8,105 nucleotides of DNA, from IMG/VR virus record IMGVR_UViG_2737471826_000003, positions 1 to 8,105 of that record. One strand, written 5' to 3'. Positions 6,833-8,105 of the stretch are shown piece by piece. Position numbers and translations under genes: made by a program. Positions within the stretch are counted from its first letter, which is position 1; the number at the start of each line of letters is the position of its first letter. Source of the DNA: a virus. Lineage: Duplodnaviria; Heunggongvirae; Uroviricota; Caudoviricetes. The notes under the pieces are model-generated. The model had not been told where the DNA came from. It ran no database searches and worked only from the letters and a program-made list of their open reading frames with translations.

Positions 6833-7717
6833 TCACTGACAAATGTTTTTGTCAAAATCAACTACAATAATATCATCATATGAGTATAAGTTATATTCAT
6901 ATGCTCTTTTAATCTTTGCGGTTGAGCAAAAGGTTTTTTCATTTAACACACTTGCAATGTTTGTATTCCCAGGGTGTTTAAAGTAAACTCCAACTCTATT
7001 CATATAAGGGAATGGCCAATCCCAATTATAGAAATACTCTGGGAAAAATCTAGATATTAACGGGTAATTATTTCGTGCGTTTACAAAAACATCATTGTCT
7101 TTCTTTTTACCATTAAAAATAAGTATCTGATTTGTTTTTCCGCTTAACTCGAAAGCATCATTTTTAATCTGATGAAACAGAACTGTGGTTATGTTTTTTT
7201 CTTCTGTCATTGCATTTGTGTATGAACATAAAAAACCAAAAACATAAATCAGAGGAATTACAAGTATATATGTTATTGAATTTTTTGTTTCTCGCGAGAA
7301 AAGATAAACAATCATGAATAAGAACAACATCGTAGCAGAAAAACCGATCATCACTCTTGGGGCGTCGATGTGATGCTGAAGTGGTAATAGAGTAGCAAAA
7401 GACAATATCAAAGCTGTTACTGGTGATGTTATTGTAATTAAAAAATTAATAATACCAGTAATACTTTTATTAGGTATTGATTTCTTTAGCGCGATGAATG
7501 TCGTCATTGCAATGAAAAATAAAAATATTACTATAAACGCAACTCGTCCTGATTCCCCAAAAATACCACTAGATATTGAATGAAGATAAAATTTTAAGTT
7601 TTCATATATAACTGAAAAAATGCCTTCAGTTTTAATTGATGGGTGATCCGGGTCCCCAACAACAGTTAAAAATAAAGGAATAACCACCAAAAAATATAAT
7701 GCAACACCTATAACTAA
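6833..7717 (-). CDS. AT-rich polytopic membrane protein of unknown function, 5' end interrupted by IS5 (likely inactivated); candidate lysogenic-conversion or exclusion cargo (GtrC-like topology)
   Basis: Track ORF 6833..7690 begins with TTG. The frame stays open upstream through hydrophobic codons (LVIGVALYF) to 7717, where the IS5 terminal repeat begins. At least 5 hydrophobic helices are followed by an aromatic-rich soluble C-terminal domain of about 130 aa. Hand counts give about 25-33% GC versus about 60% in neighbouring phage genes. No family is recognisable by eye. Confidence 0.6.
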   Translation of the reverse strand, partial: LVIGVALYFLVVIPLFLTVVGDPDHPSIKTEGIFSVIYENLKFYLHSISSGIFGESGRVAFIVIFLFFIAMTTFIALKKSIPNKSITGIINFLITITSPVTALILSFATLLPLQHHIDAPRVMIGFSATMLFLFMIVYLFSRETKNSITYILVIPLIYVFGFLCSYTNAMTEEKNITTVLFHQIKNDAFELSGKTNQILIFNGKKKDNDVFVNARNNYPLISRFFPEYFYNWDWPFPYMNRVGVYFKHPGNTNIASVLNEKTFCSTAKIKRAYEYNLYSYDDIIVVDFDKNICQ

Positions 7718-7733
7718 GGAAGGTGCGAATAAG
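7718..7733. repeat. IS5 terminal inverted repeat (GGAAGGTGCGAATAAG), preceded by the CTAA target site at 7714-7717
   Basis: Exact match to the IS5 terminal repeat as recalled. IS5 characteristically inserts at YTAR (CTAA) and duplicates 4 bp. Confidence 0.9.
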
Positions 7734-7863
7734 CGGGGAAATTCTTCTCGGCTGACTCAGTCATTTCATTTCTTCATGTTTGAGCCGATTTTTTCTCCCG
7801 TAAATGCCTTGAATCAGCCTATTTAGACCGTTTCTTCGCCATTTAAGGCGTTATCCCCAGTTT

Positions 7864-8105
7864 TTAGTGAGATCTCTCCCACTGACGTATCATTTGGTCC
7901 ACCCGAAACAGGTTGGCCAGGGTGAATAACATCGCCAGTTGGTTATCGTTTTTCAGCAGCCCCTTGTATCTGGCTTTCACGAAGCCGAACTGCCGCTTGA
8001 TGATGCGAAACGGGTGCTCTACCTTGGCACGGATGCTGGCTTTCATGTATTCGATGTTGATGGCCGTTTTGTTCTTGCGCGGATGCTGCTTCAAGGTTTT
8101 TACCT
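7864..8105 (-). CDS. insH: IS5 transposase InsH, C-terminal portion (5' part outside window)
   Basis: Minus-strand translation ...[79 protein letters not shown] matches the recalled C-terminus of IS5 InsH. The track's 'M' at 8094 is a TTG inside the ORF; the frame continues to the window edge. Confidence 0.95.

Follow-up and report, generated by a model that had tools for sequence, protein, structure and literature searches.

An ISKpn26 insertion in the gtrC gene of an Escherichia coli prophage, followed from a contig that ends within the element

What has become of a gene when its reading frame runs into an insertion sequence (IS) that in turn runs off the end of the contig? This question is raised by the last part of an 8,105-nucleotide (nt) stretch of viral DNA, positions 1 to 8,105 of IMG/VR record IMGVR_UViG_2737471826_000003 (the whole of which is here called the window), in which the 3′ portion of gtrC, a predicted serotype-converting O-antigen glucosyltransferase gene, abuts the first 388 nt of the element ISKpn26. 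More specifically, which element is it, did it arrive by simple transposition, what would its arrival do to gtrC and the surrounding genes, and why was this gene hit? The explanation in which we place high confidence is a recent, single transposition of ISKpn26 into a CTAA site of gtrC, which would have produced a null allele without involving either prophage decay or a regulatory effect. The window corresponds to the entire short-read contig JUCU01000122.1 of the draft E. coli assembly GCA_000798415.1, and it stops within ISKpn26 because short-read assembly is unable to cross a repeat; such assemblies break some 30-390 nt into the repeat.

The identity of the element can be read from these 388 nt (7718-8105, minus strand). 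They are identical at 388 of 388 positions to copies annotated by PGAP as 'IS5-like element ISKpn26', many of them in E. coli, and likewise to a reference ISKpn26 copy (L002), whereas the match to IS5A of K-12 is 377/388 (97.2%, 11 mismatches). A match of this kind cannot be chance, and the complete identity to ISKpn26 against 97.2% to IS5A means that the element is ISKpn26, a close relative of IS5, rather than IS5 proper, which was rejected. Over their whole lengths ISKpn26 and IS5A are 94.5% identical, and the ISfinder convention for calling two elements the same IS is about 95% identity or more, with the window showing only a third of the element. The name IS5, given to the element in the original prediction, is therefore right at the family level only. 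Within the visible third lie the C-terminal 79 codons of the transposase gene together with its TAA stop (7864-8105, minus strand, with the stop at 7864-7866), which match the DDE_Tnp_1 family (Pfam PF01609, E = 6.6e-8); the catalytic part of the enzyme falls beyond the window. The transposase gene does point toward gtrC, as had been described. Its reading frame is different from that of gtrC and it has its own stop, on which grounds a transposase-GtrC fusion was rejected.

The boundary of the element is equally precise. A 16-bp terminal inverted repeat, GGAAGGTGCGAATAAG, occupies 7718-7733 at the transposase-3′ end, and the same sequence is found at the ends of K-12 IS5A and the L002 copy; it matches the repeat of the opposite end, GGAAGGTGCGAACAAG, at 15 of 16 positions, such that both ends take the imperfect form GGAAGGTGCGAA(T/C)AAG (the near one at 7718-7733, the far one at 10608-10623 of contig L005, described below). 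The near junction reads cacctataaCTAA followed by GGAAGGTGCGAATAAGCGGGG, CTAA occupying 7714-7717 and the repeat beginning directly after it at 7718, just as first reported. CTAA fits YTAR, the motif that IS5 duplicates at its targets (PMC5009759), and ISKpn26 in acrR is flanked by a 4-bp duplication of CTAG (PMC8023600). The duplication rule is taken here from these two papers, as matching 4-bp flanks were not seen at either of the full reference copies that were fetched (ISKpn26 in L002 and IS5A in K-12).

The gene on the other side of the junction is recognisable because intact versions of it exist. The minus strand of 6833-7717 is identical, at 885 of 885 nt, to the 3′ end of the 1488-nt gene that encodes WP_000561375.1, a 495-residue 'glucosyltransferase domain-containing protein', and represents codons 202-495 plus the stop. 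Uninterrupted alleles continue for a further 603 nt upstream through cacctataaCTAAtgataccgtc, the empty site reading ataaCTAAtgatacc with just one CTAA, and the insertion thus lies inside gtrC, between codons 202 and 203 of 495; the earlier claim that it splits the reading frame of a cargo gene is borne out. Intact GtrC contains a GtrII domain (Pfam PF14264) at residues 26-333 (E = 1.1e-26). A 209-residue N-terminal fragment of the protein also matches GtrII (E = 3.8e-21), and the remnant in the window, searched alone against Pfam, gave no family match. ISKpn26 splits the GtrII domain mid-way, at residue 202. In uninterrupted genomes gtrC closes a series that begins with a GtrA-family gene (gtrA, GtrA_DPMS_TM) and continues with a glycosyltransferase of family GT2 (gtrB), and gtrA, gtrB, gtrC, intS and the tRNA-Arg gene argW are found at the end of the prophage (in L012, L008 and L005). 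From this arrangement and its sequence the cargo is identified as the gtrC of a classic prophage gtrABC cassette for O-antigen glucosylation, a mechanism that is summarised in PMC7685785. The putative function of the GtrC-type glucosyltransferase would be to transfer glucose from undecaprenyl-phosphate-glucose (Und-P-Glc) to a defined position of the O-unit, resulting in serotype conversion.

Did the element enter this site by simple transposition? For an insertion that duplicates CTAA, the product on the unseen side was predicted beforehand: GtrC(1-202) followed by GKVRTSS and a stop if the element is ISKpn26, or by GKVRTSP if it is true IS5. An exact protein look-up found the ISKpn26 version (...TVSLGKVRTSS) as KHI19527.1 / WP_047664548.1, in which the N-terminal 202 residues are identical to intact GtrC, and the IS5-specific version (...GKVRTSP) was absent from the protein collection. 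The far junction itself, TTAG followed by GGAAGGTGCGAACAAG, exists and was read directly in contig L005 of read set SRR2239608, which ends in gacggtatcaTTAG joined to GGAAGGTGCGAACAAGTTCCTGATATGAGA, the other terminal repeat lying against a second copy of the target. The orientation of this far repeat is that expected from the full element, with both IS ends consistent. The same read set yields contig L011 (7754 bp), bases 11-7754 of which equal positions 1-7744 of the window base for base, near junction included. The GenBank numbers KHI13467 and KHI19527 are too distant to prove that the two halves belong to one assembly, and for this purpose the single read set that supplies both junction contigs was used instead.

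When the two flanks are placed on genomes with an empty site they fall together. The last base of the near flank is at 12524 on L008 and the first base of the far flank at 12521; the corresponding positions on a complete genome, that of strain K12a (L012, NZ_CM144236.1), are 27701 and 27698, the overlap being CTAA in both cases (12521-12524 and 27698-27701). Both flanks are colinear on both genomes at 99.96-100% identity. Colinear flanks that overlap by exactly CTAA on two uninterrupted genomes mean that the event was a simple transposition with a 4-bp target-site duplication, of which the CTAA at 7714-7717, single in empty-site alleles and present at both junctions in L011 and L005, is the near copy. 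The matching terminal repeat and second CTAA that had been proposed as a check are accordingly present, and a single copy of ISKpn26 presumably lies between the two junctions.

What, then, would remain of gtrC function? On the proposed mechanism, one ISKpn26, a 1.2-kb member of the IS5 family, would have jumped into the CTAA between gtrC codons 202 and 203, duplicating the 4-bp target and cutting the GtrII domain into two pieces. The 5′ piece ends seven codons into the IS, as GtrC(1-202)+GKVRTSS*, and the 3′ piece would be left without an ATG, a ribosome-binding site or half of the catalytic domain. Translation cannot readily enter this 3′ piece from the element, where the gtrC frame meets a TGA stop at 7757-7759 that blocks any read-in fusion between IS and GtrC, and there is no ATG or GTG in the frame between this stop and a TTG at 7688-7690, in agreement with what had been noted before; a GTG follows directly at 7685-7687. 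These two codons, gtrC codons 211 and 212, are the earliest possible internal starts, and in the sequence upstream of them, TTAGTTATAGGTGTTGCATTATATTTTTTGGTG, neither has a usable Shine-Dalgarno element. The GTG is the start picked by both NCBI and Prodigal, giving a product of 284 residues that is on record by exact look-up; exact look-ups of the 285-residue product of the TTG start, of the 304-residue partial product at the contig edge and of ten other partial products returned no record. Begun at the GTG, the remnant would be without residues 1-211, about half of the GtrII domain. The original prediction that an IS-cargo fusion protein is unlikely, and that residual expression would need internal initiation, holds on the downstream side, where there is neither a fusion nor a good internal start, but not on the other side, where the short fusion of GtrC(1-202) with seven IS residues (KHI19527.1) is encoded.

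The best-supported prediction from these features is a clean gtrC null allele in which gtrA and gtrB stay intact, the expected phenotype probably being loss of the glucose side-branch of the O-antigen. On the far contig gtrA, gtrB and intS are base-identical to the intact genes of K12a. No polar or activating effect on neighbouring genes is expected, because gtrC closes its operon and is followed by a convergent tail-fibre assembly gene (6127-6531).

How old is the insertion, and how widespread? The junction was found in 0 of 5,426 complete E. coli genomes, and exact-pattern scans for the near junction gave 0 matches in a species-representative genome set and in a metagenome set. This gtrC allele is carried by 35 complete E. 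coli genomes, all 35 of which have it full-length and uninterrupted, with an empty site containing a single CTAA (30 of them at 100% identity), and the allele survey that had been suggested thus returns the insertion in 0 of 35 carriers. The fusion peptide was seen on two contigs only, one at NCBI and one in Logan. Taken with the remnant, which has accumulated 0 substitutions in 885 nt relative to the intact allele, the 35 uninterrupted carriers point to an event that is recent and private to one strain. As to why gtrC was the target, the gene has a G+C content of 30.8% and 17.5 YTAR sites per kb, five times the 3.4 per kb of the adjacent tail genes, and it accounts for 13% of the YTAR sites while making up 4.8% of the prophage length examined. 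The simplest explanation is therefore target availability in an AT-rich accessory gene combined with insertion sequences that are active in the strain, and the insertion itself is probably neutral.

A number of observations weigh against this account and need to be set beside it. The interior of the IS is unassembled in every dataset reached, such that 'one 1196-bp copy' is a matter of parsimony, and the contig of KHI19527.1 is tied to the window assembly by the identical pair of Logan contigs and by neighbouring RefSeq WP numbers. In addition, the same gtrC carries a TCA to TAA nonsense change at codon 366 in GCA_015620525.1 (in the region of L008 12030, equivalent to window position 7224), a 1-bp deletion at codons 209-210, within a T6 run, in the Logan assembly of ERR9710902 (L004 2275), which leaves the same 284-codon reading frame as is found in the window, and a contig break in GCA_021110135.1 (the end of L009, 12387), where one base does not match and a further repeat junction may lie. 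Two independent point lesions and a contig break in other drafts are anecdotal, and leave some room for selection. It could accordingly be argued that the insertion is an adaptive loss, one of a series of recurrent knockouts that are favoured since the absence of O-antigen glucosylation pays, through escape either from antibody or from phages that depend upon glucosylation; rare gtrC pseudogenes in Salmonella have been interpreted as possible signs of recent selection (PMC3688519). We consider this unlikely. All 35 complete genomes with the allele keep it full-length, 30 of them without a single difference, the IS allele was seen in a single strain, and the high YTAR density of gtrC accounts for the hit without recourse to selection, while the presence of another IS, likewise in an AT-rich accessory gene of this prophage, speaks for general IS activity. 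The ERR9710902 frameshift, moreover, comes from an automatic assembly, lies in a homopolymer and could be erroneous. The original prediction's selection against the function of the cargo is not supported by the survey.

The unassembled interior also gives a foothold to the idea that the junctions arose by IS-mediated rearrangement, through deletion or inversion between IS copies, or that they bound a composite transposon. Several IS copies are present in the strain and its assembly breaks at them, and the lack of matching repeats around the L002 and K-12 IS5A copies indicates that such events occur. A deletion or inversion would not preserve a target-site duplication together with adjacent flanks, and here both junctions come from one read set, at opposite ends and in the correct orientation, with a perfect 4-bp duplication and with flanks that lie exactly side by side, and colinear, on two genomes whose site is empty; the duplication and the adjacent flanks would both survive in a composite element. 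Rearrangement and composite structure, considered together, are very improbable. Only slightly less credible is a regulatory role, in which the IS would drive or modulate the gtrC remnant or its neighbours in the manner of IS5 at bgl, flhDC, glpFK and fucAO. IS5 activates neighbouring operons, and since the remnant runs in the same direction as both the gtr operon and the transposase gene, read-through into 7717..6833 is plausible. There is little for it to act upon, given the in-frame stop in the IS, the absence of an ATG, the lack of a Shine-Dalgarno element at the TTG and GTG, the loss of residues 1-211 with around half of GtrII, and the convergent downstream gene. A consensus promoter scan of the minus strand at the IS end detected no promoter-like site, the region being at background with 4 found against 5.4 expected, and the in-window promoter and good start through which the gene might have been expressed independently are not apparent. 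The altered expression of neighbours that had been raised by analogy with bgl and flhDC is for these reasons not anticipated. Finally, a chimera in which assembly had fused gtrC with an IS read would also place a junction at the end of a short-read contig and would explain its absence from complete genomes, but the independent Logan assembly of SRR2239608 has an identical near junction and contains its reciprocal far counterpart, and a precise YTAR target with a reciprocal 4-bp duplication is unlike a chimera. An assembly artefact was rejected on the evidence of L011, and its likelihood is close to nil.

Could the insertion be a sign that the prophage is falling apart? The gtr operon is carried by a prophage that is integrated at argW in the E. 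coli draft GCA_000798415.1 and whose early and lysis genes are lambdoid, its contractile tail being Mu-like. All of the phage open reading frames in the window are intact and differ from those of K12a by two nt. The K12a prophage appears complete, having antiterminator Q, lysis, terminase, portal, capsid/head, contractile tail, baseplate, tail fibre and integrase genes; most of the prophage of the window strain is unseen, and its completeness is judged from this near-identical relative. The decay of a defective prophage, which had been suggested as one reason for the insertion, is not what these genes indicate.

Several further features of the prophage deserve mention. The same tail module and gtrCBA genes occur in two chromosomal contexts, either beside intS/argW (K12a, L008 and the window strain) or abutting ybhB-bioA, as in CFSAN061770 and similar genomes, where they lie directly at ybhB-bioA with no integrase adjoining; homology between the two contexts stops about 130 nt past gtrA (L001, NZ_CP023142.1, 6296-6745 versus L012 29579-31122). 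At the opposite end of the window, positions 1-16 form a second IS junction, tgaggggatctctcag, which is preceded by GGGGAAATTA in bases 1-10 of L011. The repeat is the inside-end terminal repeat of IS10 (PGAP 'IS4-like element ISVsa5'), agreeing at 30 of 30 positions with plasmids that carry Tn10, R100 and R27 among them, and IS10 interrupts, near codon 22, a minus-strand accessory gene for a 148-residue OB-fold ('tRNA_anti-like') protein, a gene of 37% G+C whose copies in K12a and L008 are intact. Two different IS elements in this way bound the 8.1-kb contig, each in an AT-rich accessory gene of the prophage. The two differences from K12a in 7.7 kb, at window positions 5270 and 6086, both fall at second codon positions of the glycine-rich tail-fibre gene (5194-6126), giving H26 in place of P and H298 in place of R; they may represent variation in receptor binding or residual errors in the nanopore-only assembly of K12a. 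The tail-fibre protein is named 'carbohydrate kinase' in some records, an apparent misannotation. On the minus strand of about 6503-6631 there is a short pseudogene fragment of a tail-fibre assembly (tfa) gene without its N-terminus, antisense to and overlapping the end of the intact tfa; it is annotated in K12a (L012 26487-26615) and may be what remains of a tail-fibre segment that was alternative or invertible.

How does this insertion compare with what is known? ISKpn26 in acrR and mgrB of Klebsiella pneumoniae has the same 388 nt, the same 16-bp repeats, the DDE_Tnp_1 transposase, a 4-bp YTAR duplication and disruption of a coding sequence in common with the present case, but the acrR target is CTAG (PMC8023600) rather than CTAA, and here the host is E. 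coli, the target a prophage gtrC and the phenotype unrelated to resistance. With IS5 of K-12 (IS5A/insH) it shares the family, the terminal repeats, the YTAR rule (PMC5009759) and the overall organisation, while differing in sequence (97.2% over 388 nt, 94.5% over the whole element) and in the far fusion, which ends RTSS here and would end RTSP for IS5. The cases of promoter activation by IS5 at bgl and flhDC are intergenic, whereas the gtrC insertion is intragenic. The cassette itself resembles the gtrABC genes of Shigella flexneri and Salmonella phages and of E. coli CPS-53 (yfdGHI), with a gtrA flippase, a gtrB GT2 bactoprenol glucosyltransferase and a serotype-specific gtrC of the GtrII type, placed at the prophage end by int and a tRNA gene, the latter being argW as in CPS-53. 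Losses of O-antigen genes by IS and by point mutation are both documented (PMC7685785, PMC3688519). The gtrC pseudogenes reported in Salmonella (PMC3688519) are due to a premature stop and not to an IS, and the allele described here is specific to the E. coli O17/O44/O73/O77/O106 cluster. In E. coli O101/O162 an IS likewise inactivates one O-antigen gene and may explain a serological difference between identical clusters (PMC7685785), though that IS lies within the O-antigen cluster whereas gtrC is prophage-borne and outside it, and the serological effect in the present case is a predicted one. There is therefore nothing new in kind about an ordinary strain-specific knockout that combines a known IS, a known target rule, a known family of accessory genes and a known mechanism. 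It carries little mechanistic weight, and serves as a worked example in which an IS junction at a contig end is closed computationally, by predicting the reciprocal fusion peptide and then looking it up; its practical value is modest, in that it points to one gtrC allele that probably determines the O17 glucose side-branch.

This last point relates to the strain in which the intact allele is found. K12a is the O17:H18 serogroup reference strain (PMC13248637), and it is also the closest complete genome, differing from the window at 2 of 7701 nt and from the far contig at 1 of 10,607 (3 in about 18,300). Its O-antigen cluster is of the shared O17/O44/O73/O77/O106 type. Among these serogroups O77 is the unbranched backbone, to which the other four add glucose side-branches by means of glucosyltransferases encoded outside the cluster (PMC7685785, PMC13188871), a basis confirmed for O44 only. 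The wzy/wzx genes of the cluster occur in 94 of 5,426 complete genomes, and at least 31 of the 35 genomes with this gtrC allele figure among the matches listed. The allele is nearly confined to genomes with O17/O44/O73/O77/O106 wzy/wzx (loci L012 26817-29579 and L014 23734-26342). Since only one gtrAB-like locus can be detected in K12a at the nucleotide level, and since the allele tracks the wzy/wzx of this 'O77g' type, gtrC is a candidate for the O17 determinant. Tentatively, then, and as a real possibility rather than an expectation, gtrC may encode the O17-defining side-branch glucosyltransferase, an assignment for which no paper was found, and the window strain may be a natural convertant from O17 to an O77-like antigen by way of one ISKpn26 hop, still genotyping as 'O77g'.

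Current genoserotyping lumps O17, O44, O73, O77 and O106 together (PMC13188871), and if the proposal is true then in silico O-typing would be blind to a change of this sort. Calls of the gtrC allele and of its integrity would in that event resolve the O77g serogroups from genomes, with relevance to O77g members such as the sequence type 69 (ST69) lineage and the recently emerged STEC (E. coli that produces Shiga toxin) O77g:H18. Predicting the real antigen would then need both the presence and the integrity of gtrC, IS hits included.

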